Shown here in pieces: positions 695-39,400 of a stretch of 64,000 nt of DNA (the first letter of the stretch is position 1; each line of letters opens with the position of its first letter). The stretch is from Acidobacteriota bacterium (GTDB lineage: Bacteria > Acidobacteriota > Aminicenantia > UBA2199). The notes under the pieces were generated by a model. That model searched no databases. It saw only the letters and a list, made by a program, of their open reading frames with translations, and was not told the origin of the DNA. The stretch lies in contig JAUPLE010000150.1 of assembly GCA_030837085.1 (NCBI GenBank), forward strand, positions 3,016 through 67,015, given 5' to 3'. Position numbers and translations under genes: made by a program.

Positions 695-1666
695 TCACCT
701 GGAAGATGAAGCCGTCCCTTTCTCCTGGAATTTGAGAATGTGAAAGCCCTTTAGAACAAAATAGACGTACTGTCCAGCACAACATATGGTGTGGGTTTTG
801 GGCATTGTTTTGTAAACGCCTATCTGGTAAGGATTCTTTGGATCCTTAACATTAAAGGCCGTCATTTTACCGTCACAGTTCCCGAAAAGATAGTGATCTT
901 TGACACAAATCTCTTTAACTTCTTTAGACTCAAATAGAGTATGAATGAGTCGGGGAGATTCCCGGTCTGAAAGATTGAAAATCTTGATCCCAAACCCCAC
1001 CGAACCTAAATACAAATAATCCTGTTCAACCTGGATATCCCAAACCCCTCTGGTTTCGGGAATTGTTTTGATTTTTCGAGGGGAAACGGGATTAGTGACA
1101 TCAATAATTTCAAGCCCATTATCAACATCGGCAAGATATACGAAATTGTCGACAACATCAAGTCTTACGGTGTGTCCGCCCTCACCGAATTTCCCCACTT
1201 TAACAGGCTTTCGAGGATTACTGATATCCATTATCTCCAATCCGCTGTAATAGTTGGCTACATAAGCATAAGAACCCCTGACTTGAATTTCATTTGTCAT
1301 CCCACCATCGTAACAACTTCCAAGAATTTCCGGGCGTTTCGGATCAGTCACATCTACAATTACCAGCCCTTTACCACTAGCCGAGGCATAGGCAAGGTTG
1401 TCTCTAACGACAATATGAAATACGGGCTGCCCAATCCGAACTTCTCCTACCTTTTCCGGACGGTCCGGTTTTTGAACATCTACGATCATTATTTTATCGT
1501 TATCTGTCAGATAAGCATAATGGCCGTCAACATAAACAGCATAAAATAGACTGGATTTGAATTTACCGATTCGATAGAGTGGGTCATTCGTCTCGGAGCT
1601 GCATGAAAAAATGGTATATCCCAACAAAGCCAGTAAAATTACCAATATAGAAATATTTTTTATCAT
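695..1666 (-). CDS. LVIVD-repeat (beta-propeller) lipoprotein
   Basis: N-terminus MIKNISILVILLALLGYTIFSCSSE is a signal peptide plus lipobox (IFSC). Repeated motifs GLVIVDVTDPKRPE, GLEIMDISNPRKP, GLEIIDVTNPVSP, IKIFNLSDRESP recur with LVIVD-type periodicity. GGAGGA SD before the ATG at 1664-1666. Confidence 0.7.
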   Translation of the reverse strand: MIKNISILVILLALLGYTIFSCSSETNDPLYRIGKFKSSLFYAVYVDGHYAYLTDNDKIMIVDVQKPDRPEKVGEVRIGQPVFHIVVRDNLAYASASGKGLVIVDVTDPKRPEILGSCYDGGMTNEIQVRGSYAYVANYYSGLEIMDISNPRKPVKVGKFGEGGHTVRLDVVDNFVYLADVDNGLEIIDVTNPVSPRKIKTIPETRGVWDIQVEQDYLYLGSVGFGIKIFNLSDRESPRLIHTLFESKEVKEICVKDHYLFGNCDGKMTAFNVKDPKNPYQIGVYKTMPKTHTICCAGQYVYFVLKGFHILKFQEKGTASSSR

Positions 1667-1814: not shown

Positions 1815-4190
1815 TTATTCGAATTTCAGCACATCCACGGGATTGGTTTGCGCAGCTTTTACTGTTTGCGCAATAACGGTTAATACCGCAATGGTCAGCG
1901 CAACTAAACCTGCCATGACAAACATCCACCAACCAATACTGATCCTGTAAGCATAAATCCGCAGCAAGCGATTCATGCCAAACCAGGCAACAGGCCAGGC
2001 AAAAAGATTTGCCCACAATACCCAGCGGGCAAAGCGGCTAGTAAGCAGCATCGTAATCCTGGAAACAGACGCGCCCAGAAGTTTACGGATACCGATCTGC
2101 TTTGTTTGTTGCCGAACCATGAAAGAGGACAAACCGAAAAGTCCAAGGCAAGATACCAATATCGCAAGAAATGTAAAAACTTGTAAAACGGTGCCGATCT
2201 TTCTTTCCACATTATAGAAATTGCTGATGGACTCATCCAGGAATTGATATGCAAAGGGATATTCCTGGCCAACGAATTCTTTCCATTTATTTTTTAAAAA
2301 ATCAATCGTTCCAGAGACCTTTCCAGGCATGATCTTAACGCATATCTCCGAAGGGGAGTTCGCAATTTTTAATACCAACGGTGGTATGCGATTGTGAAGG
2401 GATCCCTGATGAAAATCCCTTACTACACCGATTATCACTCCCTTGTTCCCCCTAAAAGAGAGCCATTTTCCCACAGGCGACTGAAGCCCCATGACCACTG
2501 CTGCGGTTTCATTCACCACATAATTAGAGATATCAGTTGAGAGGTCCGCTGAAAAGAATCTTCCGCTGGACATCTTCATATCAAAAAATTTCATAAAATC
2601 ATAGTCGACATTAAAGGGATGCAATACTACTGTATCTTCGGTATTTTTCCCTTCCCATTGGACATTAATCTCGTCGGATGAAAAGTGTATTGGCGACCAT
2701 GACCCGGTCACGGCGAGGATATCGGGATTCCGCAGCAATTCATTCTTAACAAGTTCAAAGTTTGTCCTGAATTTTCCCTGGGCCGGATAATAGACCACAT
2801 TGTTATTATCGAATCCCAGGTCTTTACTGCTAATATAATTAAGCTGGCTGAATACAACTATGATGCTGATAATTAAAATGATTGCTATAGTGAATTGGAA
2901 TATCACCAGTATCCTTTGCAGGTAGGGTTTGCGGCGCATCTTCTTACCCACCATTCCCTTCAATACCTGCGCCGGTTGAAAAGATGAAAGGAAAAGTGCA
3001 GGATAACCGCCAGAAACGATGCCTGTGAAAACAATGATCCCAATGATGCCCAGGACGATGGAAATGTTTTCGGAAAGATCCAGGGTAAATGTGATCTCTT
3101 TCGCCGATAGTTGATTAAAGGCAGGAAGAAATAGGAAAACCAGGAAAATTGCAATCAAAAACGCAAAAAGCGCTAAAACAATCGATTCACCAAAAAACTG
3201 CTTAATTAAATCCTTTTTTGTGGCCCCAACCACCTTGCGCATGCCCACCTCTTTGGCACGGTTTCCAGAAAGTGCTATTGCCAGGTTTACCGAATTGATG
3301 CAGGCAACCAGTAAAATCCATAGAGCTAACAGCGAGAAAATATATATATATAAAATATTACCCTTTCGAACGTTATCTTCATCATCCCTGTAATTGGAAT
3401 AAAGATGGACCCGTTCCAGGGGCTGGAAAAACACTCTAATGTTTTTCTTTACGGGGAGATAGTCCTTAGCCAGATCAGTGATTTTTTTCGACAATGCATC
3501 GGGGAAACTGTTCTCGCGAAGTTGAACATAGGTTACGAATCGGAATTGGCCCCAATCTTTCAAATTCAAACTCCAGAATGATTCCATATTAATGATGGGA
3601 AATATGCAATCAAACTGCATATGGGAATTATAGGGTATATCTTTCATAACACCTGTCACCTTAAAATCCACACTTGCGATCTTAATTATTTTGCCGATGG
3701 GGTCTTCGCCATCGCTAAAATACTTTTTGGCCATTTTTTCCGTTAACACCACCGAGTACCGGTCTATTAAAGCAGTTTTAGGATCGCCTTTTAGAAGAGG
3801 AAATGAAAACACTTCAAAAAACGATTCATCAGCAGTACCCAATCGATCGTTTGTAAAAAATTTTTCACCATTTTGAACCAACCATCCGTCAAAACTCTGG
3901 AATCTAGGTGAATAAACCACTTCGGGAAACATTTCTTCCAGTACAGGGCCAAGGCCATTGGGTGTTTTGGCATAATCGAAAGAACCGTGCTCAGTGCTTA
4001 ACTGCCCAATAAGTCGATATATGTTTTTCCCATTTACATGGAATTTATCATAGTTTAATTCGTCCCGAACCCATAATAGGATTATAATACAGCAGGCAAT
4101 CCCTATGGCGAGGCCCAAAATATTGATTAATGAATAGATTTTGCGTCTCACTATGTTTCTAATTGCAACTTTTAAATAATTTCTAAGCAT
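1815..4190 (-). CDS. ABC transporter permease, FtsX/MacB-like with duplicated permease modules (about 790 aa). Start refined to the ATG at 4188-4190; the ORF-track start at 4265 is a TTG inside the promoter -35 box.
   Basis: MLRNYLKVAIRNIVRRKIYSLINILGLAIGIACCIIILLWV is a typical MacB_PCD/FtsX N-terminus. Two FtsX-like 4-TM regions sit near the middle and the C-terminus. AAGGAGGA SD (4197-4204) lies 6 nt upstream of ATG 4190. Confidence 0.75.
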   Translation of the reverse strand: MLRNYLKVAIRNIVRRKIYSLINILGLAIGIACCIIILLWVRDELNYDKFHVNGKNIYRLIGQLSTEHGSFDYAKTPNGLGPVLEEMFPEVVYSPRFQSFDGWLVQNGEKFFTNDRLGTADESFFEVFSFPLLKGDPKTALIDRYSVVLTEKMAKKYFSDGEDPIGKIIKIASVDFKVTGVMKDIPYNSHMQFDCIFPIINMESFWSLNLKDWGQFRFVTYVQLRENSFPDALSKKITDLAKDYLPVKKNIRVFFQPLERVHLYSNYRDDEDNVRKGNILYIYIFSLLALWILLVACINSVNLAIALSGNRAKEVGMRKVVGATKKDLIKQFFGESIVLALFAFLIAIFLVFLFLPAFNQLSAKEITFTLDLSENISIVLGIIGIIVFTGIVSGGYPALFLSSFQPAQVLKGMVGKKMRRKPYLQRILVIFQFTIAIILIISIIVVFSQLNYISSKDLGFDNNNVVYYPAQGKFRTNFELVKNELLRNPDILAVTGSWSPIHFSSDEINVQWEGKNTEDTVVLHPFNVDYDFMKFFDMKMSSGRFFSADLSTDISNYVVNETAAVVMGLQSPVGKWLSFRGNKGVIIGVVRDFHQGSLHNRIPPLVLKIANSPSEICVKIMPGKVSGTIDFLKNKWKEFVGQEYPFAYQFLDESISNFYNVERKIGTVLQVFTFLAILVSCLGLFGLSSFMVRQQTKQIGIRKLLGASVSRITMLLTSRFARWVLWANLFAWPVAWFGMNRLLRIYAYRISIGWWMFVMAGLVALTIAVLTVIAQTVKAAQTNPVDVLKFE

Positions 4191-4196
4191 GTAAAT

Positions 4197-4204
4197 CCTC
4201 CTTT
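4197..4204 (-). promoter_or_regulatory. Shine-Dalgarno AAGGAGGA for the permease gene
   Basis: Revcomp of tcctcctt at 4197-4204; 6-nt spacer to the ATG. Confidence 0.6.
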
Positions 4205-4236
4205 TTTGTTTTTTTCGACTCTTCTGATAAAGGTAG

Positions 4237-4265
4237 AGTATACCTGATTTAATAAATATTGTCAA
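4237..4265 (-). promoter_or_regulatory. Near-consensus sigma70-type promoter for the transporter gene: -35 TTGACA (4260-4265), 17-nt spacer, -10 TATACT (4237-4242)
   Basis: Minus strand reads ...aaTTGACAatatttattaaatcaggTATACTct..., about 45 nt upstream of the ATG at 4190 and downstream of the NRPS stop at 4337. Confidence 0.5.

Positions 4266-8415: not shown

Positions 8416-8419
<4 letters not shown>
4337..8419 (-). CDS. NRPS termination module: TubC-like N-terminal docking domain - C - A - T - TE
   Basis: Docking-domain motif LKVQAPEGKLTPSLISELKEKKQGIIEFF. C motifs SSAQMRMYFLQQ, RHESLRTSF, HHIICDGTS, QYKDYAEWQ, IGMFVNTLALR. A motifs LAYLIYTSGSTGRPKG, YRTGDLARW, GRTDHQVKIRGFRIEL. T motif FFEIGGNSLK. 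TE motif FGHSIAGLL. ATGA start/stop overlap with the upstream gene at 8416-8419. Confidence 0.9.
4340..5077 (-). other. Thioesterase (type I TE) domain, active-site GHSIAG, Ser codon near 4823-4825
   Basis: GxSxG nucleophile elbow in an alpha/beta-hydrolase context at the extreme C-terminus of an NRPS. Confidence 0.8.
6431..6465. repeat. Tandem heptamer array (aacaatt cacaatt aacaatt gacaatt gacaatt) in an A-domain loop; adjacent gaatgat repeats at 6380-6404
   Basis: Read directly; encodes ...MANCQLSIVNCELL... and FHHSSFINHSSHL in the a2-a3 loop of the terminal module A domain. Confidence 0.8.
8264..8419 (-). other. TubC-type N-terminal NRPS docking domain (about aa 3-52 of the terminal module)
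   Basis: Matches the TubCdd pattern L..L...G..L..E...L.xxAPxGxLTPELxxxLxxHKxELL: here LDELHIQIDVVDDKLKVQAPEGKLTPSLISELKEKKQGII. Confidence 0.6.
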
Positions 8420-17454
<9,035 letters not shown>

Positions 17455-17487
17455 AACATTAATCTCCTTTGAATAATTTACTCAATT

Positions 17488-18429
17488 TTAAAATTCCCAG
17501 GCTCCATCATCCTCAAGTATACTTTTTGTCGGGAATTTTCTTTTCACACGTATATTTTCGTCGATATATTTTCCAATGTCTTTAAACTCAACCAAAGGCG
17601 GGACTGCATTTTTATGGAGTTTCATCCAACGCTCATCCGCTTTGACAATATCCTGCAATGAATACGGATTGGGGAGATTTAGTTTCTTAATATGTTCGGT
17701 AAATCTCGCCATCCTGCGATACCTTTCTTCTCTTGTGGGTTCGCAATCCAGGTCTCTTTTTTGAAGGAGCAGCAAATGTCTTGCTTTCTCGGGAAAAACA
17801 AGATAGCTTTTTCCCACCCACTCAGCGGAACTTACCTGCCCACCCGAATAATACCAATATGGATTTGTTTCAGCCTGGTAAATGTAATTCTTTAGTTCTG
17901 TAACAATATCAAAAGAATAAACCTTTTGATGTCCCGGGAGTTCGCCCCGTAAAAGCTTTAGAAACAGTATTTCACCTTCGCCGATTATGAATTTGTCGAT
18001 ATACGGTGTCCTTTCAATAAAAAATTCCAGGACCACCGAATCGATAGCAAGTTGGTCGTCAAAAACGCCCCCACCCATTACTGTCTTGATATGGGGATAT
18101 TTCTCCCTGGTGAGGTTAAAGACAAATAAAGACGCGGGGAGCGATCCCTTGAGTACAGAGAGGCACAATAACGCCGGTTTTTCTTCAGACAATATTTGAA
18201 GGATAAACATCCCCAGCCTGAAATAAAACTTATCTAGAATAAGCACTAGTTCCCGTGCCCGGGAATCATCGATATCTAAATAGAATGCCTGATAAAATAG
18301 TATTTTTACCAACTCGAGGTACTCTCCTTCATCTCTATAATGGATATGGGCCATCATATGATTGATTAAGACATCTTTTCCGATGTTATAAAAATTGCTT
18401 CTTTTATTTTGGGGGAAATATCTCTTCAT
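17488..18429 (-). CDS. Stand-alone cobalamin (B12)-binding-domain-like protein with no radical-SAM cysteine motif. A longer form (start 18631-18633) is interrupted by an in-frame TAG at 18580-18582.
   Basis: TVMGGGVFDDQLAIDSVVLEFFIERTPYIDKFIIGEGEILFLKLL matches the class-B rSAM B12-binding segment (GG....D.VV.GEGE). No CxxxCxxC anywhere. The in-frame upstream sequence encodes the canonical start of this domain (see finding). Confidence 0.55.
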   Translation of the reverse strand: MKRYFPQNKRSNFYNIGKDVLINHMMAHIHYRDEGEYLELVKILFYQAFYLDIDDSRARELVLILDKFYFRLGMFILQILSEEKPALLCLSVLKGSLPASLFVFNLTREKYPHIKTVMGGGVFDDQLAIDSVVLEFFIERTPYIDKFIIGEGEILFLKLLRGELPGHQKVYSFDIVTELKNYIYQAETNPYWYYSGGQVSSAEWVGKSYLVFPEKARHLLLLQKRDLDCEPTREERYRRMARFTEHIKKLNLPNPYSLQDIVKADERWMKLHKNAVPPLVEFKDIGKYIDENIRVKRKFPTKSILEDDGAWEF

Positions 18430-18644
18430 GGTCTCAAAATATTCATCATATATTTCTTTGAACTCCTTTTCAACCTTTAAATCGAAGGTTTTGACATTAT
18501 AGCCATGCTGAGCTAAGTAACTTTTGATGCAAGTTATTCCCAGGGTAGGGTTCAGTGGGATACAAAAAGGAAGTAATCCCTATAATATTTTCCCTTCCCA
18601 AATAACGTTATAGTTAGAATTTTTCTTTTTCATTTTTGCTTACA

Positions 18645-18650
18645 CTCCTT
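18645..18650 (-). promoter_or_regulatory. Shine-Dalgarno AAGGAG serving the upstream ATG (18631-18633) of the B12-binding gene
   Basis: Revcomp of 18631-18660 is aacttaaaatAAGGAGtgtaagcaaaaATG, placed 10 nt after the stop of the preceding NRPS gene. Confidence 0.5.
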
Positions 18651-18659
18651 ATTTTAAGT

Positions 18660-21600
18660 TTAGAATTCAAAGGCAATATAATCTTCCAGGGCAAAACCAT
18701 CTTTGCTGGCAAACAGGGAATGAGAAATTTTGATATCTTTCAACTTGATGTCTCTATTCCCTATTACATTCGTCATAATCTGCTTGAAATAGGTGATAAT
18801 CTTTTCTATGGTCTCTTTTTTAAATAAACTTGTGCCATATTCCATTGAAAGAGTGATGTTTTTACCTATATTTGTCCCGGTCAGGGCCAGGTCGAACCTG
18901 GTTATTTTGACTTCATGGGGATAAAAACTCATTTCTAAATCAGGTGTCTTACCATCCGGTTCACCTTCCAATTGAAGTTCCATATCATTGAAAATATAAA
19001 AGAAATCAAAGAGGGGATTCCTTCGAGCATCCCTTTTAGTGATGACCTTCCGTACCAGTTCTTCAAACTGGAAGTCCTGGTTGTCAAATGCTTCCAATGC
19101 CTTCTTTTTTACTTCACTTAGAAACTCCCTAAATGTTTTATCCCCGGCCGGTTCATTGACCAACACCAGCATATTCTGAAATGTTCCAATTATTTGTTCC
19201 AGGTCAGGATGTGTCCGACCTGACGCCCCGGTGCCGATAATGATGGTTTCCTGGGCGCAGATCCTGGATAACCATATGTTACATATTGCCAGGATAACCA
19301 TAAAAAGGGTGGCCCCTTCTTCCTGTGCTATTTTTTTTAACTGGCTCGTTTCTTCAACTCCTAATGCAAAATTGATAAGACTTCCCGCAAAGCTCTGTAT
19401 CTCGGGTCTCTCAAAATCAATGGGTAGGTTCAACTCCGGTATCCCCCTGTTCAAAACCTCTATCCAGTACTCCTCCTGTTTTTTTATCGCATCGCTTCCT
19501 TTTTTACTGTTCTGCCATTCTGAAAAATCCTTATACTGGATAGGTAATACGGGTAGTTCTTTGTCCACATCTCTAACCAGATGCCAGAACTCTTTCAGCA
19601 AAACTCCCTGTGATAATCCGTCGGCAACGATGTGATGCATATCTACCATTAGTATATATTCGTCAACATCCATTTCAATTAACCCTACTCGCAACAAGGG
19701 GGCTTGAGAAAGGTCAAAGGGCCTTAGAAAATGGCCAAAAATTGTCTCTGGGGAATGCCTTTGGGGACGTTCCGAATGATATTCAATTGCAAATTCCACC
19801 TCTCGGTGTATTCTTTGGCAAGGTTCACCTTCTACCAGTAAAAATGAGGTTCTAAAACTTTCATGCCGTTCGATCAGTTTGTTGAAGATATCCTCAAATT
19901 TTTTCTTATCCGGTTTCATTTTAAGTACGGCCATATTCGGCAGGTTGAAACCTGTATTCTCTAAATCTAATTGCTGGAGTACATAAAATCTCTTTTGTGC
20001 TGAAGATAATGGATAATATTCCTTTGCTTCCACCGGCTCGATCGATGCAAATTTATGTTCCTTTGATGCTCTCATGAACTGCACTTGTTCCGCCAGTTCC
20101 CTTATATAGGGAGTTTTAAATAAATCCACCAAAGTTAATTTTACATCCAGTGTTTTATATATTTTCGAGACCAAGATCATTGCGTTTAAAGAGTTCCCAC
20201 CGAGTTGAAAGAAGTTGGAATCTATACCGATCATATCTTTTTCTATTCCCAAAACTTCAGTCCATATCTCTACAAAACTTTCTTCCACCTTATTTCGAGG
20301 TCCAATATATGCTCCCTCTACCGTTTCGATTTGAGGCTCGGGAAGTGCTTTCCTGTCTATCTTCCCATTGGGAGTTACGGGAATGGCATCCAATGGAACA
20401 AAATAGGCTGGGATCATGTAATCCGGTAGTGTTTGTGACAGGTATTCTCTTAATTCTCTATGCTCGGGCATTCCACGGTTATTTTTCTCTAAAACGATAT
20501 AGGCACACAGGTATTTATCGCCGTGACCATTCACCTTACATACCACCACCGCATCTTTGATATTCTTATTGATAATTAACCGGCGCTCTATTTCTTCCAA
20601 TTCAATCCGGTTTCCCCTTATTTTAACCTGGTAGTCAAATCTTCCCAGGCATTCAATAGAACCATCCTCCCTAAAATAACCGATATCACCCGTTTGATAT
20701 AATACGGCAAAATCGGGGTCCTTAATTTTATCAAGAAAGGGATTGGGAATAAAAGAAGCCTGTGTCTTTTCAACATTCTGCCAATATCCTTTTCCAATAC
20801 CCACGCCTGCCACACATATCTCTCCTCTTATTCCCACTGGGCATAAAGCTAAATGCCGGTCCAGGATATAAATATGTAAATTCTGGAGCGGGTTACCTAT
20901 AGGAATAGTACTTTGGGTTTCAGAAAAAAGCACGGGAACCCTGTAGTGGGTAACATCATCCGATGCTTCTGTGGGGCCATAGGCATTTAAAAGGGGTATA
21001 CAGTGAAAATGACGGTACCATTCTCTTACCAGGGAAGGAGTTAGGGGTTCTCCGGTGGGTATCATCCACCTTAAATGCTTAAGTTCCCCTGCATTTTCCT
21101 GCACCACCGTTTCAAGGAAAGCGGTCATTAAGGAGGGTACTGATTCTAAAATGCTAACTCTACCTTTGCGAAGCACCTGAAAAAAATTCCAGGGTTCCAA
21201 AACGGTTTCTTTATCAACGATAAAAGTAGTTGCCCCCAGCAATAAACCGGTAAGAAATTGCCAGACGGATATATCGAAGCAGGAGGAGGCGGTTTGGGCA
21301 ATGGTATCCCCTGATGTCACGGACAGGTCGTTAATCTTGGCATAAAGATGATTGATCATTCCTAACTGGTGAATTAAAACTCCTTTGGGTTTACCCGTGG
21401 TGCCCGAAGTGTAGATCATATAGACAAATTGATCCGCCACACCGATCAATCCAGGGTTCTCCAGCAACTTGCCATGTTCATTGGTACTAAAGGATTTCTC
21501 ATAATCGAGGTAAAAGACCTGGTTCACCTGGATGGAAGAAGATGCCTCTTGAAGCCGGTTCAAATTTTCATGATTGTCCTCACTAGTTATCACTACTTTT

Positions 21601-24600
21601 GATCCGCTGTTCTCAAGTATATAAATAACCCGATCGGGGGGATAATCTACTTCAATGGGTATATAAGCCCCGTTTGTTTTAAAAACACCAATGATGGAAG
21701 CCAACATGGCAATACTTCTTTTAAGGTATAACGCGACGAAGGTATCTCTGATGCCCTTGCTCAATAAAAGATGCGCGATGTGGTTGGCTTCTTCATTTAA
21801 TCTACTGTAGGTGATATGGCGCTGATTGTGAATGGCCGCTATTTTATGGGGAGCCCTGTCCACCTGTTCTTCAAATAATGCCGGAAAACCTTTATCCCTT
21901 ACGACCTCCTTTTTTGTATTATTAAAGATATACAATATTTTTTCTTTCTCTTCTTCCGTTATTATTTCAATTTCTGCAATCCTCCGATCTCTATCACGGA
22001 TAACAGAGTTCACCACCTGTTTGAAGCAATTGACAAAACGTTTGATAGTCTCTTTTCTAAAAAGTTTTGTACAGTATTCGAATGAGAAAAACAGGAATTT
22101 TGGAGTTTTCATCCCGGTTAATGTCAAATCAAATTTCGTGGTTTTCTTTTCATACGAATACATACTCTTCGTTGAATTAAGGCGCTCTGACAGCGGGGAT
22201 TCAGTAGTTCCGCCTATGGCCCCCGTACCGGTATCTTTATCCGTAAAGGAAAACATAACGTCAAAAATGGGATTGCGGCTGGTGTCCCTGGCGACCGCGA
22301 CCTTTTCAACCAGTTCTTCAAATTGATAATCATGGTTTTCAAAAGCTTGTAACGTTCGCTCTTTTAATTCCTGCAAAAATCCTGTGTATACCTTTTCTGC
22401 CGCCGGGAAGTTCCTCAAGGCAAGTGTATTGACAAACATACCGATAATATTCTCCAGGTCAGCATGGTTGCGGCCCGCCACATCAACCCCTACGATGATA
22501 TCTTGCTGATTGCAGATATTTGATAGCGTTATATTGAATAGGGATAATAAAACCATAAATATTGTGGTGTCAGCCTTTGCAGCAATTTTTCCTAACGCTA
22601 TTGTTTCTGTTTCATCCAGGTTAAAGTATACCATAGCCCCTTCAAAACTCTGGACGACAGGTCTTGGGAAATCCGTCGGGATATCTAATACGGGGATTTC
22701 CCCCTGGAATTCTTTTAACCAATATTCTTCCTTTTTTTTCAGGGCTTCTATCACTGCGCGGCTTTGCTGCCACTCCGAATAATCTTTATAGTGAAGTTTC
22801 AACGGAGATAAATCTTCCCCGTTGTATAATGCCGAGATCTCACGGATCAATACTTCTTGCGAAACTCCATCGGTAATGATATGATGCATGTCCAACATCG
22901 CTATATTCTGCAGCCCTTCGGATTTTATCAGCCCTAACCGCAGCAAAGGGGCCAGGGTTAAATCGAAAGGCCGGATAAAATCCCGGAAAATCTCAGTTAC
23001 TGTTTTCTTCGCATTGCCCCCGGCTTCATGATACTCAATTCCGATGTTAATATTGGGATGAATTTTTTGAACCGGTTTTTCATGGATTAACTCAAAGGAG
23101 GTTCTTAAGCTTTCATGCCTGGAGATTAATTTACTGCAAATCTCTTCCATTTTTTTCTCATTCATCCCCTCGCCCAGGTTGAACAGGATCGGCATATTAT
23201 AGCTGGTACCTTCTAAGTCCAATTGCTGTAAAACATACAACCGTTTTTGAGACGATGAGAGGACATAATACTCTTTCTTTTCCACCGGTTCAATGGAGAT
23301 ATAGTTAACCGGAGTTTCTTTTTGGATAATTTGCGCCAATTCCCGAATAGTTTGCGCATCAAAAATTTCGGCCAGGGGTAATTTTATGTTCAGTGCCTTA
23401 TGGATTTTTGAAATCAGTAAGATCGCTTTAAGCGAATGGCCACCCAGTTCAAAAAAATTGCTGTTTATACCAATAACGCTTTTATCAATATCTAAAACCT
23501 CAGCCCAGATATCCGCCAATTTTTCTTCAATTTCATTGCGCGGAGCAATATAGCCGTCTCCTTTTTTTATTTCGGGGTCAGGCAGCGCTTTCCTGTCTAT
23601 TTTTCCATTGGGAGTTAGAGGAATTTTTTCCAAAATCATAAAATACGACGGTATCATATAATAAGGCAGGTTTAATGCTAAATGTTCCCGTAAATTAGGT
23701 AATGCAAGCTGGGCAGAAGGATGGAAAACCACATAAGCGCATAAATATTTCTCACCGTTTTCGTCTTCTTTTGCCACAGCCACTGCTTCTTTTACTGCAT
23801 CCAGGCTTAACAATTGATGTTCGATTTCTTCCAATTCGATTCGGAATCCCCTGACTTTCACCTGGTAGTCCTTGCGGCCCAGGAATTCCAGGTTGCCGTC
23901 TTCCCTAAAATAGCCGATATCACCTGTTTTATAAATAATTTCATAGTCATGGCCGCCAATTTCTGGGGCATAAGGATTGGGGACAAAGGACTTCGCAGTT
24001 TTCGTAGGATTTTTCAGATAACCTTTTCCCACCCCAATCCCGGCAATACAAATTTCGCCGGGAACTTTTGTTGGGCATAACGATAAATTGGTATCCATTA
24101 TGTATATGTGAAGATTTTGCAGCGGTTTGCCGATGGGAATGGTGCCCTGATCTTCCAGGTCAGCCGCCTCGATTACCCAGAGGGTAACATCATCTGATGC
24201 TTCTGCGGGGCCATAGGCATTTACCAACTTTATCCCGGGACAATGTCGGTACCACTGCCGGGCCAGGGCTACCGGCAGCGCTTCTCCGGTGGGTATCATC
24301 CATCTCAAATACTTCAACTCTTTATGGCCTTCCTGCTTAATTACTTCAAGGAAGGCAGCCATTAGCGCCGGCACAGCTTCCAGGATTGTAACCCTACCTT
24401 TCTGCAGCGAATAAATCAGGCGACTGGGTTCGCCTACCTCCTGGCGATCGACAATATAAACGGCACCTCCCAGGATCCCGGCTGTTAAAAATTGCCAGAC
24501 GGAGATATCAAACGAAAGTGAAGCGGTCTGGGCAATAATATCTTCTTCGGTTATACCCAGGAAAGCGATATTGGCATAGATATGATTGAGCATACCCAGG

Positions 24601-25961
24601 TGATGGATCATGACTCCCTTTGGCAATCCGGTAGTCCCGGAGGTGTAAATTATATAGGCGAGATTATCCGATGAAATAGGGAGCCGGGAATTTTCCGTCG
24701 AATATCCATTAAGGGTATGGCTCAATTGGGTGTCGCCATCCAGGTACAGCACCGTCAGCAAACCCGGAAGACGATCTTTTACTTGATTAACCGTTTCAAT
24801 ATTTTCCGTTTGCGTTATCAATACTTTTGCTTCGCAATCTTCAAGGATGTTTTTAATCCTTTCCCCCGGGTAATCGATATCGAGTCCCAGGTAAGCTCCC
24901 CCGGCTTTAAATGTCCCGAAAATGGATGCCAGCATTTTTATGCATCTTTTCATATATATTGCCACAAATGCATCGGCCGCTATTCCGTTACTACTTAAAA
25001 ACCGGGCAATACGGTTGGCCTCCCCGTTTAACTTCTTGTAGGTAATTTGATTGTTACCATTGAATATGGCGGCAATTCGATCCCCACACCGGTGGACCTG
25101 TTCCTCGAACAACTGGTGATAACATATATCTCGCCTGATATCCTTTTGGGTATTATTGAATTCAAAGAGTATCCGTTTCTTTTCCTCTAGTGAGAGGATC
25201 GTCACTGTCGATATGGTCGAATCAACACTAAAAAGGATTTGCTGCAAAAGAGTTTTCAAATGGATAATAAGTCTTTGAAACCTGGCTTGCTCGTACCGCT
25301 GCGAATTGTATTGAATGGAGCCTATAACGTTATCATCTGTTCTGAAAAATGAAAATACTGTGTTGGTCTGAATATTCCGGGTATATCTTTTATCCTGGAT
25401 ATTTTCCATTATAAGCATCACATCAAATAATGGGAAATCAATACCCGTCTCATCATAGGTTAAATCCAGTTGCTCAATCAATACTTCCATGGGGTAATTC
25501 TGATTTTCAATGGCTTCGGTAATAACCTGCAGCACCTGCAGCAACAGCTCTTTAAACGTCATCCCAGGAGCAATTTGACTTCGTAAGGGAAGAACGGTAT
25601 TGATAAATTCAATATCCACATCCTGTTTATAAATGGGGGAACCTAAAATGATATCGGAGTGTCCGGTATATTTATGGAGCAAAATAACCAATGCCGCCAC
25701 CAGGATCATATGCAACCTGGAATCAGCGCCTTTACTTAATTGCATTAACCGGCTAAATAGCTCACCCTCCAGGCAAAAATCCACACGCGCATCAGCTGCG
25801 GCGTATCCATTTTCGGAGGCATCGCTCTTTACGATAAATCGATCGTAATGAAAGTAACTTTTCACCCATTCTCCAGATAGTTTTTGTAACCAATAATCTC
25901 TCTCTTTGAGTTTTTGATTGGCTGCAATCATCAACCGGTCATTTATTTTTCGTTTCAGCAT
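18660..25961 (-). CDS. Bimodular NRPS: Clobe - A - T - C - A - T - C (2433 aa), ending in a full C domain plus tail ...DYIAFEF
   Basis: N-terminal Clobe (DYWLQKLSGEW, FINTVLPLRS, NQNYPME, FPLFDV). Two paralogous A domains (AYIIYTSGTTGLPKG / VYMIYTSGTTGKPKG; FDISVWQF; AYGP(A/T)EASDD; YKTGDIGYF / YQTGDIGYF). T motifs LGGHSLKA and LGGNSLNA. C domains with MHHIITDGVSQ and MHHIVADGLSQ. Confidence 0.9.
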   Translation of the reverse strand: MLKRKINDRLMIAANQKLKERDYWLQKLSGEWVKSYFHYDRFIVKSDASENGYAAADARVDFCLEGELFSRLMQLSKGADSRLHMILVAALVILLHKYTGHSDIILGSPIYKQDVDIEFINTVLPLRSQIAPGMTFKELLLQVLQVITEAIENQNYPMEVLIEQLDLTYDETGIDFPLFDVMLIMENIQDKRYTRNIQTNTVFSFFRTDDNVIGSIQYNSQRYEQARFQRLIIHLKTLLQQILFSVDSTISTVTILSLEEKKRILFEFNNTQKDIRRDICYHQLFEEQVHRCGDRIAAIFNGNNQITYKKLNGEANRIARFLSSNGIAADAFVAIYMKRCIKMLASIFGTFKAGGAYLGLDIDYPGERIKNILEDCEAKVLITQTENIETVNQVKDRLPGLLTVLYLDGDTQLSHTLNGYSTENSRLPISSDNLAYIIYTSGTTGLPKGVMIHHLGMLNHIYANIAFLGITEEDIIAQTASLSFDISVWQFLTAGILGGAVYIVDRQEVGEPSRLIYSLQKGRVTILEAVPALMAAFLEVIKQEGHKELKYLRWMIPTGEALPVALARQWYRHCPGIKLVNAYGPAEASDDVTLWVIEAADLEDQGTIPIGKPLQNLHIYIMDTNLSLCPTKVPGEICIAGIGVGKGYLKNPTKTAKSFVPNPYAPEIGGHDYEIIYKTGDIGYFREDGNLEFLGRKDYQVKVRGFRIELEEIEHQLLSLDAVKEAVAVAKEDENGEKYLCAYVVFHPSAQLALPNLREHLALNLPYYMIPSYFMILEKIPLTPNGKIDRKALPDPEIKKGDGYIAPRNEIEEKLADIWAEVLDIDKSVIGINSNFFELGGHSLKAILLISKIHKALNIKLPLAEIFDAQTIRELAQIIQKETPVNYISIEPVEKKEYYVLSSSQKRLYVLQQLDLEGTSYNMPILFNLGEGMNEKKMEEICSKLISRHESLRTSFELIHEKPVQKIHPNINIGIEYHEAGGNAKKTVTEIFRDFIRPFDLTLAPLLRLGLIKSEGLQNIAMLDMHHIITDGVSQEVLIREISALYNGEDLSPLKLHYKDYSEWQQSRAVIEALKKKEEYWLKEFQGEIPVLDIPTDFPRPVVQSFEGAMVYFNLDETETIALGKIAAKADTTIFMVLLSLFNITLSNICNQQDIIVGVDVAGRNHADLENIIGMFVNTLALRNFPAAEKVYTGFLQELKERTLQAFENHDYQFEELVEKVAVARDTSRNPIFDVMFSFTDKDTGTGAIGGTTESPLSERLNSTKSMYSYEKKTTKFDLTLTGMKTPKFLFFSFEYCTKLFRKETIKRFVNCFKQVVNSVIRDRDRRIAEIEIITEEEKEKILYIFNNTKKEVVRDKGFPALFEEQVDRAPHKIAAIHNQRHITYSRLNEEANHIAHLLLSKGIRDTFVALYLKRSIAMLASIIGVFKTNGAYIPIEVDYPPDRVIYILENSGSKVVITSEDNHENLNRLQEASSSIQVNQVFYLDYEKSFSTNEHGKLLENPGLIGVADQFVYMIYTSGTTGKPKGVLIHQLGMINHLYAKINDLSVTSGDTIAQTASSCFDISVWQFLTGLLLGATTFIVDKETVLEPWNFFQVLRKGRVSILESVPSLMTAFLETVVQENAGELKHLRWMIPTGEPLTPSLVREWYRHFHCIPLLNAYGPTEASDDVTHYRVPVLFSETQSTIPIGNPLQNLHIYILDRHLALCPVGIRGEICVAGVGIGKGYWQNVEKTQASFIPNPFLDKIKDPDFAVLYQTGDIGYFREDGSIECLGRFDYQVKIRGNRIELEEIERRLIINKNIKDAVVVCKVNGHGDKYLCAYIVLEKNNRGMPEHRELREYLSQTLPDYMIPAYFVPLDAIPVTPNGKIDRKALPEPQIETVEGAYIGPRNKVEESFVEIWTEVLGIEKDMIGIDSNFFQLGGNSLNAMILVSKIYKTLDVKLTLVDLFKTPYIRELAEQVQFMRASKEHKFASIEPVEAKEYYPLSSAQKRFYVLQQLDLENTGFNLPNMAVLKMKPDKKKFEDIFNKLIERHESFRTSFLLVEGEPCQRIHREVEFAIEYHSERPQRHSPETIFGHFLRPFDLSQAPLLRVGLIEMDVDEYILMVDMHHIVADGLSQGVLLKEFWHLVRDVDKELPVLPIQYKDFSEWQNSKKGSDAIKKQEEYWIEVLNRGIPELNLPIDFERPEIQSFAGSLINFALGVEETSQLKKIAQEEGATLFMVILAICNIWLSRICAQETIIIGTGASGRTHPDLEQIIGTFQNMLVLVNEPAGDKTFREFLSEVKKKALEAFDNQDFQFEELVRKVITKRDARRNPLFDFFYIFNDMELQLEGEPDGKTPDLEMSFYPHEVKITRFDLALTGTNIGKNITLSMEYGTSLFKKETIEKIITYFKQIMTNVIGNRDIKLKDIKISHSLFASKDGFALEDYIAFEF

Positions 25962-25994: not shown

Positions 25995-27374
25995 TTAGCC
26001 TAATTCGCGTTCCAATTGATTGTTGACTTTTTCGAAAATTTCGATCGCCTTTTGAACAATTTTGGGAGTTGTTATTAAGGGGGGCAAAAAACGAACCACA
26101 TTGGAGTAGTGCCCACCCAATTCAACCAGCAGGCCATTTTCGAAGCATTTCTTACGCATCTGCTGGGCCATCTCAGGAAACGGTTCTTTACTATTCGGAT
26201 TTTTCACATATTCGATTCCGAAAAACATGCCGATTCCTCTTACCTCACCGATAAATTTCGATTTTTTCTGGATGCATACCAGGCTGCCCAGCATCTCTTT
26301 TCCCAGTTCTTTTACATATTTCTCAATGTGGTGAGATTTTGCGAATCTTATGGCCGATGCAGCGGCTGCAATACTCAACTGGTTTCCCCGGAAGGTCCCG
26401 GCGTGGGTACCTTTCTCCCAGGTATCCAGGTTTTTTTTATAGATCACCATTGCAATAGGCATACCAATACCCCCTAGACCTTTTGAGATTGTAATGATAT
26501 CAGGAACGGCCCTAAAATTTTCAAAAGAGAAAAAGGGACCAGTCCGGTAAAAACCGGATTGAATCTCATCAAAAATCAACGGTATTTCCAAATCATGGCC
26601 TATTTGCACCAGTTCTTCAAGAAAACCTTCTTTGGGAATAATGGTCCCCCCTTCTCCTTGTACCGGTTCAACAATAATGGCCGCCGGTTTTTCAATACCT
26701 GAGCATGGATTTTCCAATGAAATCCGGACATATTGGGCACACTCCACACGGCATGCATCGGGCTGTTTACCAAATGCACAGCGATAACAATAACAATAGG
26801 GCATGAAATGAACCCCAGGTTCTAAAGAAGGGACTTTTTTCCGATGGTGTAAATGGGCGGTGACGCTTAATGCACCACTTGTCATCCCATGATAAGCCCC
26901 CTGGAAGGAGATGATGCTGTGCCTACCGGTATTTATTTTGGCTAATTTTAAAGCGGCCTCAATTGCATCGGTTCCTGCGGGACCACAAAAATTAAACTTT
27001 GAATTTCCCCTTAATTCATCGGGTAATGAGGCATCCAGCTCTTCCATAAAGTCTACTTTATTCCTGGTGGGGAAATCCAACGATTGGATCATTTTTTTTT
27101 GCTGCTTTTCCATATCAGCCATTACATCTTTATTATTGTGCCCCAGGTTCAATACACCGCATCCGGCAAAAAAGTCTATATATTGATTGCCGTCTATGTC
27201 TTCTATAATAGAGCCCAAAGCTCTTTCAAAAGCGACCGGAATACTCTGGGGATAAGAGCGGTTATTTGCTTCCAACTCCCTCTGTTTTTCAAGCAATTTG
27301 AGAGAATTGGGCCCCGGTATATTCTCTGTCACAATAGCTGCTTCTTCAGTTAAATGATAACTTTCAAAACTCAT
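25995..27374 (-). CDS. Class-III (GABA/DABA/GSA-type) PLP-dependent aminotransferase with a Cys-rich insertion
   Basis: Family motifs DFFAGCGVLNLGHN, IISFQGAYHGMT, IVEPVQGEGG, LIFDEIQSGFYRTG, ITISKGLGGIGMP (putative PLP Lys). The insertion PYCYCYRCAFGKQPDACRVECAQY contains 7 Cys. Confidence 0.8.
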   Translation of the reverse strand: MSFESYHLTEEAAIVTENIPGPNSLKLLEKQRELEANNRSYPQSIPVAFERALGSIIEDIDGNQYIDFFAGCGVLNLGHNNKDVMADMEKQQKKMIQSLDFPTRNKVDFMEELDASLPDELRGNSKFNFCGPAGTDAIEAALKLAKINTGRHSIISFQGAYHGMTSGALSVTAHLHHRKKVPSLEPGVHFMPYCYCYRCAFGKQPDACRVECAQYVRISLENPCSGIEKPAAIIVEPVQGEGGTIIPKEGFLEELVQIGHDLEIPLIFDEIQSGFYRTGPFFSFENFRAVPDIITISKGLGGIGMPIAMVIYKKNLDTWEKGTHAGTFRGNQLSIAAAASAIRFAKSHHIEKYVKELGKEMLGSLVCIQKKSKFIGEVRGIGMFFGIEYVKNPNSKEPFPEMAQQMRKKCFENGLLVELGGHYSNVVRFLPPLITTPKIVQKAIEIFEKVNNQLERELG

Positions 27375-36477: not shown

Positions 36478-39400
36478 TCAAAAACCGAAACCGATTTCGT
36501 CCGCAGGCACCATTCCGGAAGTTGCCACCCCCAGATCACTGGAAATGGAAATATCCTTCAAATAAATGTCATTGTTTTCCATCACAGAAGCAATAATCTC
36601 TTCTAAATAAACAATAAACCTCTTAACCGTTTCCTTTTTAAAGAGGCATTTCCGATAAAATAATATGAGGGCCAACTCATTATTATATTCCATACCCACC
36701 AACCCCAGATCAAATTTCGCCTGTATATTAACATCGATTTGCTTTTGATTAACCAAAAGTTCACTATATCTAGCTTTTTCGTCGCGGGAATAAAAAGTCA
36801 AAAATACATCAAATAACGGATTGCGCATCCCTGTTCTCGTTATTACCAACTTATCCACTAGTTCTTCGAATTGATAGTCCTGGTTAGCAAAGGCATCCAT
36901 CGCCCTCTTTTTTACATTTCCCAGGAACTCCCTAAAGGTTATATTTTCGGAGGGGAAATTCTTCATTACCAAAGTATTTACAAACATACCAACAATTTTT
37001 TCTAAATCCGCATGCCTGCGGCCCATTATCACGGTACCGATGTTTATTTCCTCCTGACCGCTCAGTTTAAACAGCAATACATTAAGCAAAGAAAGAACAA
37101 TCATAAACATTGTAACATTTTCACGTCTTTCCAGCCCCCTTATTTTTCCCAGGTCATTTTTTTCTATCACAGAGATTACGTAGTCTCCCTCAATATTTTG
37201 ATAATTGGACCTCTGGAAATCAGTAGCTAAATTCAGATGAGTCATATCTCCTTTGAACTCCGTTAACCAATATTCTTCTTGCTGTTTAAGAGCATTTCGT
37301 TGTTCCCTGCAATTTTGCCACTCAGCATAATCTTTGTACTGAATCCGCAGTGGAGGTAATTCTTCTCCCCGGCTCAAAGCCATACTATCATCCATTAATA
37401 TATAGTGAGAAATTTCATCAGATATCACATGATGCATGTCCACCATCAATATATTTTCTTTCCTCCCGGTTAAAATAAAGCCCACCCGAAGGAGGGGGGG
37501 GTAGTGCAAATCAAACGAGCGGATGAAAATTTTCATTATATCTTTGATCTTAGCATCAGCCGCTTCTACGGAAGAGATATCAAAATCTTCTATTTCAAAT
37601 TCGATTTTATGGAACTCATGAACCCTCTGTCGTGGCTGATCTTCTATTATTTCCAGGGAGGTTCTCAAGCTTTCATGCCGTTGGATCAGTTTTCTAAAAA
37701 CATCCTCCAATTTTTTCTTTTCCAGGTCTTTTTGAATTTTAAACACCTGGGGTACGTTGTAAGCAGTACTCTTCATGCTCAATTGTTGTAAAAAATACAT
37801 CCGTTTCTGTGCTGACGATAATGAATAATACTCCTTTTTTTCCACGGGATATATCGATAAATATTTATCTTCAGCGGAGTAACTGATATAATGAGCTAAT
37901 GCTTCAACTGTGGGCGTTTTGAAAAAGTCTGCCAGGGGCATTTTCACATGAAACTCCTTATGAATTTTTGCCAACAGTATGGCTGATCTTAACGAGTGAC
38001 CACCTATTTCAAAAAAGTTAGAATGGATGCCTATTAACTCTTTTTCCCTTTCCAGAACGTTAGCGTACATCTCGATCAACTTCTCTTCTATTTTATTTCT
38101 CGGTCCGATATATTGTTTTCGTATCTCCCCGTCAGGGATCGGAAGTGCCTCTTTATCTATTTTCCCATTACGAGTTAAAGGGATGTTATCCAAATGAACA
38201 AAAAAGGAGGGGACCATATAATGCGGCAATTTCCCGGACAAATATTCCCGCAATTCCATACTATCAAATGTTTTTTCTGTCCCCATTACAGGAACAATAT
38301 AAGCACAAAGGTAACAATCTCCATTCTCTGCTGTCCGGGCAACGACAACGGTTTCTTTAATGTTCTTATGTCTTAATAAATGACTTTCTATTTCCCCCAA
38401 TTCGATCCGAAATCCCCTGATCTTAACCTGGTTATCGAGCCTCCCAAGGAATTCGATATTTCCATCAGGAAGCCATCGGACCAAGTCACCGGTGCGGTAA
38501 ACTTTGTCACTGGTCGTAAGCGATTGGTCATTTGTGAATGTGTTGGGAATGAATTTCTCTCCTGTCATGTCCGGGTTGTTTAAATATCCCCTACCGACAC
38601 CTATCCCGGCGATATGTAATTCACCTGGAGCGCCCGGGGGTTGAAGCTTCCCGCCAGAGCAAAGGATATAGGTTCTCATATTCACCAGGGGTTTACCGAT
38701 GGGAATACAATCCCGCTGTTTCATGTCGCCAGAAATTATGGTATAAGAAGTGGTCACATCACAGCACTCGGTGGGACCGTAAACATTAGTGATGGAGGTT
38801 CCCCCGTGGCCAAATCCGGTGAAAAACTGTTTCACCAACTTAGTGGATAAAGCTTCTCCCCCGATAACGAACTCCTTTACCTGGGGTGGAGGTACGTCTT
38901 GTTCCAGGCATTCCGATAATATTCGCATATGGGCAGGCGTTCCATCCACAATATCTACCCTATACCGCCTGTAAAATTCCAATAAACCAAAACCATCCAA
39001 CCGGGTATCCTCAGGGACAATATGCAAAGAATATCCAGACAATAATACCGTAAATACTTGTTTTACCGAAGCGTCAAATTCAAAAGGAGAAACCAAGCAT
39101 ACCTTCAACTCATTATCGCTATAACGATGGTAGATTCTTTCCCGCAAACCATGTACAAGGTTATTTACATTTCGATGTTCGAGCAACACCCCTTTAGGTG
39201 TTCCGGTAGAACCGGAAGTAAAGAAGACGTAAGCTAAATTACTGGGCCGATTGACAGGCAGCGGATTGGGAACCGATTCAGCCGGTAGTACTGCCATGGC
39301 ATCCAGGAGCAGGACTTTCCTTAAGGCCGATTTCGCAACATCAGTACTCCCTGAACATTGTTCAAGGAAGGCAAGTCCGGGAACTTTTTTCAATACCTCT

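Follow-up and report, generated by a model that had tools for sequence, protein, structure and literature searches.

The locus at positions 18633 to 17488 of the window (the whole 64-kb stretch of DNA that was analysed) is most probably a pseudogene in which a stand-alone, cobalamin-dependent radical-SAM enzyme of class B has recently been inactivated, a reading to which we assign a probability of approximately 0.9. In the NRPS/PKS clusters of Ca. Aminicenantes, the gene for this enzyme sits between two genes for megasynthases, and the one that follows it directly opens with a condensation (C) domain. The copy in the window bears two lesions. The first has turned the TTG codon of Leu18 into TAG, so that ribosomes starting from the preserved SD sequence and ATG would yield a 17-residue peptide only. 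The second is an in-frame loss of approximately 570 nt comprising the radical-SAM core with its [4Fe-4S] CxxxCxxC motif, so that even a read-through product would be incapable of radical-SAM chemistry. A preliminary description of this DNA had left three options, namely a recent nonsense pseudogene, a sequencing error and amber read-through; we retain the first and set aside the other two for the reasons given below.

Reading frame and translation signals

On the minus strand, a single frame of 381 codons was read directly between positions 18633 and 17488; it begins with MKKKNSNYNVIWEGKIL, is interrupted by a TAG codon, continues as GLLPFCIPLNPTLGITCIKSYLAQHGYNVKTFDL... and ends in ...EDDGAWEF followed by TAA. 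The coordinates of all features are listed in Table 1. This reading confirmed the TAG, and the ATG 17 codons ahead of it, where the preliminary description had placed them, although its leader peptide, given as ...NVIGKGKIL, should read ...NVIWEGKIL. The AAGGAG that it had reported behind the stop codon of the preceding NRPS gene is likewise present; the spacing from that TAA (18662..18660) is 9 nt, and the distance to the ATG is 11 nt. Both the SD sequence and the ATG are intact, and the 363 codons past the TAG contain no additional stop and no frameshift. As had been stated, the frame lacks a CxxxCxxC motif, since none was found in the translation of its 381 codons. Past the TAG, no start codon occurs before the ATG at 18429, where the annotated 313-aa ORF begins; the initial strand and helix of the B12-binding domain are missing from this ORF.

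Table 1. Features of the pseudogene locus and its flanking genes (window coordinates)
Feature	Position	Strand	Basis or remark
SD sequence (AAGGAG) of the ancestral gene	18645..18650	-	Direct reading
Ancestral ATG of the B12-radical-SAM gene, now opening a 17-codon peptide	18631..18633	-	Aligned with the start of orthologue P0002
In-frame TAG, codon 18	18580..18582	-	Direct reading and alignment
N-terminal cobalamin-binding domain remnant, codons 19-240	17914..18579	-	PF02310, TIGR03975, identity to P0002
In-frame deletion junction	17911..17916	-	Protein alignment, DNA alignment to L003, two tblastn segments
C-terminal domain remnant of the family, codons 241-381	17491..17913	-	Identity to P0002
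C-terminal DDGAWEF	17491..17511	-	Tail conserved across the family
Annotated 313-aa ORF (NCBI 'hypothetical protein QG657_966')	17488..18429	-	Opens at an internal Met
NRPS gene upstream (2433 aa; C-terminus ...EDYIAFEF)	18660..25961	-	
Downstream NRPS gene, 3012 aa, C-domain N-terminus ...ELAIAASQSIEEENYWL	8416..17454	-	Putative docking partner for the ancestral enzyme

Family of origin

A search of 5.8 billion proteins returned 1161 homologues; those listed came, where named, from Candidatus Aminicenantes. Among the matches listed, the sole 313-aa protein was the window ORF itself; all others were 543-591 aa in length (typically approximately 570 aa) and contained the Pfam B12-binding and Radical_SAM domains. 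Genomes hold paralogous copies of the family, with several per contig. The homologues align from the very first residue past the TAG, and identity to full-length homologues was 65-69% on both sides of the gap left by the core. With the best homologue, the intact 571-aa protein P0002, tblastn yielded two segments: the B12-binding remnant matched residues 3-242 with 66% identity, and the C-terminal remnant matched residues 430-571 with 69% identity.

PF02310 was the only Pfam domain detected in the window frame (E 6.9e-7; 29.6 bits, under the gathering score of 32.1), and PF04055, which represents the radical-SAM core, was not detected in this frame by the Pfam scan. The NCBIfam model TIGR03975, which describes B12-dependent radical-SAM C-methyltransferases, aligned to residues 21-233 of the window protein over the first third of its 606 positions. 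The preliminary description had claimed that the annotated ORF starts inside the B12-binding domain, and the alignment of both TIGR03975 and the homologues from just past the TAG bears this out. Scores against this model were 33.6 bits for the window gene and 108.9 bits for its intact orthologue P0002, both below the curated cut-off of 281.85 bits; P0002 reached no curated NCBIfam cut-off, TIGR03975 being its best match, and the context of the window is NRPS/PKS, not RiPP. Its domain content places the intact family among the radical-SAM enzymes of class B. The window gene has retained the cobalamin-binding Rossmann-type domain of this class, whereas the CxxxCxxC core and an uninterrupted frame are both missing, and we class it as a family-derived pseudogene.

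Two lesions relative to the intact syntenic relative

In the alignment, the TAG coincides with the second Leu of a conserved KILLALLPFW stretch. Because this codon is TTG in all five closest orthologues, the nonsense codon can be explained by a single T-to-A change, that is, by one transversion. P0002 is encoded on contig CDLUOR010000503.1 of assembly GCA_975971625.1 (locus L003), where it lies between two large genes with 80-84% nucleotide identity to the NRPS genes flanking the window gene. In the DNA alignment, L003 carries TTG where the window carries TAG, and a clean gap of approximately 570 nt opens between ...GTT TAT TCT T and TT GAT ATT GTT ACA GAA....

At the protein level, alignment columns 245-433 (approximately 190 residues) are missing from the window protein, and these correspond to the whole radical-SAM core. 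The deletion of approximately 570 nt starts right behind ...VYS and stops right ahead of (T)LD(L/I)VTEL; the lost segment comprises the cluster motif SRSCPFQCKFCSE and the remainder of the radical-SAM barrel as far as GFPGETEEDFQQT. A check for microhomology found that both ends of the deletion sit in similar (S/T)-L-x-D-(I/L) segments. The gene had been described as a B12 module without a radical-SAM core; this view needs revision, because the core was lost secondarily through an in-frame deletion of approximately 190 codons from an enzyme of approximately 570 aa.

Constraint and timing of the loss

We compared the window gene with its relatives for signs of relaxed constraint. In the Tajima relative-rate test, 39-48 unique amino-acid changes fell on the window lineage, compared with 19 on that of P0002. 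At columns where nine relatives agree, the window gene deviated 13 times and close orthologues 0-5 times. In a 48-sequence alignment, it also showed the most deviations at columns with at least 95% conservation (8, the median being 2 and the next-highest value 7), and these included W24C, P30T and G157C. Terminal-branch pN/pS values from a leave-one-out analysis were 0.12-0.14 for the window gene and 0.04-0.11 for four of the five intact orthologues; the fifth, P0005, reached up to 0.20 in one of two settings. These comparisons suggest that constraint on the window gene was relaxed only mildly. The pairwise omega between the window and L003 was 0.12, and this value, together with the pN/pS of approximately 0.13, indicates that the lineage spent most of its history under purifying selection.

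Synonymous sites are near saturation (dS 1.4-1.7), and they accordingly give no date for the inactivation. The loss would nonetheless seem recent relative to the long branch that leads to the nearest known relatives, and the lesion count, with one stop, one deletion and no frameshifts, fits this reading. Since the deletion is in frame and cleanly removes a single domain, the gene may for a time have encoded a functional core-less protein, until the TAG was acquired.

Possible read-through of the TAG codon and the search for core-less relatives

Amber suppression, whether by a suppressor tRNA, by pyrrolysine insertion or through a leaky context, might instead produce a 381-aa core-less cobalamin-binding protein, which would act as a non-catalytic cofactor-handling protein or adaptor docked on the downstream NRPS. 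We consider this very improbable. The preserved SD sequence, ATG and frame past the TAG would be expected of such a gene, as would an in-frame deletion that excises one domain cleanly. An AlphaFold2 model of the 363 residues past the TAG, built with 47 homologues, also points in this direction, because it is moderately confident across the B12-binding domain. Its mean pLDDT was 75; confidence was low at the deletion junction (model residues 227-238), and the last approximately 28 residues (336-363) had pLDDT values below 50 and are predicted to be disordered. In a Foldseek search against the PDB, the best match of this model was the cobalamin domain of TokK, at a weak E-value of 0.02. TokK was also a weak match by sequence, and the closest solved relatives are thus remote. 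Against a functional remnant stands the loss of nearly invariant family residues, namely W24C, P30T and G157C.

Stop codon usage in the window might at first seem to favor read-through, as TAG ends none of its 13 large ORFs, which close with 9 TAA and 4 TGA codons. The preliminary description had counted 14 gene ends with 10 TAA; its 4 TGA and the absence of TAG stand, and the other two counts are each lower by one. In-frame TAG is also absent from the 20,692 codons of these ORFs, but necessarily so, because TAG was used to delimit them, and out-of-frame TAG trinucleotides are common within them. In related Aminicenantes loci, however, TAG is an ordinary gene end (three of seven genes in L008, and further cases in L009 and L012), and the genes that it terminates include intact members of the B12-radical-SAM family. 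The TAG of the window gene stands where all close orthologues have TTG, the codon of a conserved Leu, and the position is therefore not conserved as a recoding site. ARAGORN found no tRNA gene within the 64-kb window. On this evidence from the window and from related loci, we rejected amber recoding as unsupported, and with it the read-through option of the preliminary description.

The core-less protein that read-through would yield also has no counterpart among the cluster representatives searched. We used the 363 residues past the TAG as a phmmer query against 1.84 billion cluster representatives and obtained 196 matches. Apart from a few short ones, matches with two segments were at least 527 aa long, and those checked proved to be full-length enzymes, fusions to NRPS domains or fragments, with two irregular exceptions (P0134 and P0185); single-segment matches were fragments. 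Among five longer two-segment matches that were scanned (915-2077 aa), four were fusions with NRPS C or C-A-T domains, and the fifth, P0127, contained B12-binding and radical-SAM domains only. The short matches P0134 and P0185 carry other, irregular deletions or truncations, which differ from that of the window gene. Their presence indicates that decay recurs among family members without giving rise to a conserved core-less form. A conserved core-less architecture was thus not found among the 1.84 billion representative proteins, and a natural core-less B12 family was rejected as a candidate.

Possible translation of the 313-aa ORF and possible assembly artefacts

A second alternative is that the 313-aa ORF is translated on its own from the ATG at 18429, for example to supply a C-terminal domain whose WEF tail occupies or regulates the docking site on the NRPS encoded downstream. 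The ORF comprises 313 open codons and has been called as a gene in three assemblies, and its C-terminal domain and tail are well preserved, as reflected in the 69% identity to P0002. However, no SD-like or GGAG-like site is present in the 30 nt before this ATG, and the product would begin within the B12-binding domain. No homologue starts at this point, and the other starts that lie inside the domain belong to single-segment fragments of longer family proteins. Independent translation of this ORF is, in our judgment, highly unlikely.

That the TAG, the deletion or both are artefacts, for example through the collapse of paralogous radical-SAM genes during metagenome assembly, is barely credible: the window derives from an Acidobacteriota MAG and the family is highly paralogous, with several copies per contig, but the 1401-nt region 17400-18800, which spans both the TAG and the deletion junction, was reproduced with 100% identity in the Logan assemblies of SRR24011133 and SRR24011138. 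The same ORF lies there on contigs of 25 kb and 5 kb, respectively, and the full overlaps with these Logan contigs showed 99.98% and 100% identity. Because the two assemblies are independent and come from other runs, we rejected a sequencing or assembly error, which the preliminary description had still entertained for the TAG.

C-terminal tail, gene order and proposed docking of the intact enzymes

The family to which the pseudogene is related carries the tail motif [DE]x[DN][FW]xF-COOH; the window gene ends in DDGAWEF. Among 119 full-length homologues, the final residue was F in 107 and position -3 was F or W in 110, and positions -4 to -7 were mostly acidic. In the window, six NRPS/PKS proteins have the C-termini FEF, FGF, FGF, FDY, FNF and LEF. 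The likeness between DDGAWEF and the NRPS tails, which the preliminary description had pointed out, is therefore upheld, and the tail is a property of the whole family.

Gene order followed a similar regularity. In all ten intact relatives whose neighborhoods were read, the gene lay between megasynthase genes, and the upstream protein ended in an aromatic-x-aromatic/aliphatic sequence. The downstream gene was visible in nine of these loci and started with a C domain in every case (9/9; in the ninth locus, L013, the C domain was shown by Pfam matches), and a ...KE..[YF]WL motif was found in 8/9 called N-termini. The window gene is likewise flanked by megasynthase genes, and the one directly downstream begins with a C-domain N-terminus of the ...[YF]WL type.

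In two loci, the tails of the NRPS and radical-SAM proteins appear to co-vary: in L008, an NRPS ending in ...DEFDL is followed by a radical-SAM protein ending in ...EDFDL, and in L012 the respective tails are ...NEYMDFVL and ...DEYMDFGF. Natural fusions of the order B12-radical-SAM-linker-C-A-T link the C-terminal domain of the radical-SAM part directly to the N-terminus of the C domain (...ILAATSQYGKECDFWLKKL in P0131) and have a covalent linker in place of the tail. From gene order, tail co-variation and these fusions, we infer that docking of the intact enzymes onto the downstream C domain is plausible. For the window copy, docking is irrelevant, as translation ends at codon 18. Its ancestor would have acted in trans on the assembly line as a tailoring enzyme, probably as a C-methyltransferase, and its disordered acidic and aromatic C-terminal tail would have held it to the C domain downstream; the product of the organism would now be without that modification.

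Implications

On the pseudogene reading, a candidate for amber recoding and a supposed 'B12-only' module both fall away, and the 313-aa hypothetical protein of the public annotation is identified as a pseudogene fragment. The context carries more weight than the locus itself: NRPS/PKS clusters of Ca. Aminicenantes systematically interleave B12-dependent radical-SAM enzymes, either stand-alone or embedded in modules, with synthetase subunits, and a terminal docking motif appears to be common to both. The intact relatives could form an as yet undescribed class of radical-SAM tailoring enzymes, cobalamin-dependent and acting in trans, that connect to NRPS assembly lines through the [DE]x[DN][FW]xF-COOH motif by which the NRPS subunits themselves would reach the next C domain, a tentative proposal that we rate below even odds. 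Among the papers searched, there was no description of NRPS-linked radical-SAM enzymes of Aminicenantes, of radical-SAM-interrupted NRPS modules or of B12-radical-SAM docking.

If this proposal is true, synthetase subunits and a tailoring enzyme would share a new docking code, the radical-SAM-B12 domains embedded in cis would be its fused counterpart, and the window copy would represent the lineage-specific loss of one such enzyme. Confirmation would point to on-assembly-line radical C-H functionalization in an uncultured phylum, and would offer a simple peptide tag for bringing tailoring enzymes to engineered NRPSs. The window cluster, compared with an L003-type cluster, amounts to a natural knock-out of one such enzyme.

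Comparison with known systems

Docking between NRPS subunits is known from COM donor/acceptor pairs and from short C-terminal peptides that are bound by N-terminal docking domains. To our knowledge, the tail motif of the present clade is unlike COM or β-hairpin docking sequences. The arrangement in the clade is nevertheless reminiscent of NRPS docking elements, in that the megasynthase and the radical-SAM protein share a short, apparently disordered tail and the next protein opens with a C-domain N-terminus. A further parallel is found in interrupted A domains with embedded methyltransferases, since two NRPS proteins of the window carry an embedded tailoring unit (at 39442..40815 and 45238..46596) that separates the C domain from most of the A domain. 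In the window, however, the embedded unit is a radical-SAM and B12-binding pair, whose order is permuted relative to that of the stand-alone enzyme.

Among characterized enzymes, the intact relatives share with TokK (PDB 7kdx/7kdy) and with RiPP C-methyltransferases of the PoyC/TIGR03975 type the order of cobalamin-binding Rossmann domain, CxxxCxxC core and C-terminal domain. CysS, a class B cobalamin-dependent radical-SAM methylase from the natural-product pathway of cystobactamid biosynthesis (PMC12846815), has the same domain order as the intact relatives, whereas the window copy has lost its catalytic core and contains a nonsense codon. Compared with TokK, CysS and PoyC, the family represented in the window is distinguished by its position between NRPS genes and by its conserved acidic/aromatic tail.

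The window gene itself resembles the ordinary pseudogenes of bacterial secondary-metabolite clusters, which likewise combine a nonsense codon with a deletion, have an intact close relative, keep their translation signals and show few further lesions. Only the deletion sets it apart in this company, being in frame and removing one domain cleanly.

C-terminal tails and fusions of the radical-SAM family

The C-termini of the megasynthase subunits encoded in the window were inspected together with those of the related loci L003–L013, and a short acidic tail ending in an aromatic-x-Phe/Tyr/Leu motif was found to close these subunits (FEF, FGF, FGF, FDY, FNF and LEF in the window). This motif is common to the megasynthases and to the family of B12-binding radical-SAM proteins of Ca. 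Aminicenantes. The tails of adjacent proteins also appear to co-vary; at locus L008 the NRPS tail DEFDL is followed by the radical-SAM tail EDFDL, and at locus L012 NEYMDFVL is followed by DEYMDFGF. Judging from these sequences, the motif may represent a docking code.

The phmmer search with the 363 residues of the radical-SAM remnant that follow the TAG also retrieved longer matches, namely P0123, P0131, P0133 and P0160, along with about 25 other representatives of 800–1300 aa. Five longer matches were subjected to a domain scan, and four of them carried a C-terminal NRPS fusion (B12-rSAM-C or B12-rSAM-C-A-T). At the fusion junctions that we read, a linker to the N-terminus of the C domain takes the place of the aromatic tail. 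Such fusions constitute evidence of the Rosetta-stone type for a physical link between the radical-SAM enzyme and the downstream module.

Divergence and probable decay of the radical-SAM genes

We compared the window with L003, the syntenic contig (CDLUOR010000503.1) that carries an intact 571-aa radical-SAM gene, and found that nucleotide identity was 76–92% in the flanks, compared with 63–75% in a block of ~2.1 kb (window ~16747..18870). This block takes in the remnant together with the adjoining ends of both NRPS genes, ~70 codons at the 3' end of the upstream one and ~230 codons at the 5' end of the downstream one. The dS was 1.7 for the radical-SAM gene and 0.5–0.66 for the flanks. These results suggest either a cassette exchange of the radical-SAM gene with the adjoining termini, or much faster evolution there than in the flanks.

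Two homologues from public metagenomes, P0134 (362 aa) and P0185 (325 aa), have also lost parts of the radical-SAM core, through internal deletions or truncations that differ from the one in the window. Paralogues of this family seem to undergo decay, or to be mis-assembled, repeatedly.

Other genes and embedded radical-SAM units

Features of the window and of the related locus L008
Feature	Location	Strand	Remark
Megasynthase ORFs with acidic aromatic tail	18660.., 27415.., 36478.., 42232.., 47966.., 55645..	-	
NRPS with embedded Radical_SAM and B12-binding	36478..42162	-	embedded part about 39442..40815
NRPS with embedded Radical_SAM and B12-binding	42232..47943	-	embedded part about 45238..46596
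Class-III aminotransferase, diaminobutyrate--2-oxoglutarate transaminase type	25995..27374	-	NCBIfam E 1.9e-143, under equivalog cut-off
Duplicated MacB/FtsX-type permease	1815..4265	-	downstream of NRPS genes
LVIVD-repeat beta-propeller protein	695..1666	-	downstream of NRPS genes
B12-rSAM gene of another type	L008 20282..21716		protein start MMKKTPDIDCLLIGHNEM
328-aa rSAM gene	L008 3611..4597		

The aminotransferase gene is located within the NRPS operon, which points to synthesis of a diamino acid, e.g. Dab, as a building block for the assembly line. The permease has a subunit of the darobactin exporter, DarB, as its second-best match in NCBIfam; it and the lipoprotein-like beta-propeller protein may play a role in export or self-protection.

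The related cluster L008 contains two additional radical-SAM genes (table), each of another type; radical-SAM tailoring enzymes are unusually abundant in these Aminicenantes clusters. Two NRPS proteins of the window contain embedded Radical_SAM domains with intact cluster motifs (CPYNCAFC at aa 460 and CIFKCLYC at aa 455), each followed by a B12-binding domain at aa ~790–907, and the inserted unit separates the C domain from most of the A domain. Gene 1 of L008 displays the same architecture, and a literature search found no description of such a unit embedded in an NRPS module. In these proteins the radical-SAM domain precedes the B12-binding domain, an order permuted relative to that of the stand-alone B12-rSAM enzyme.
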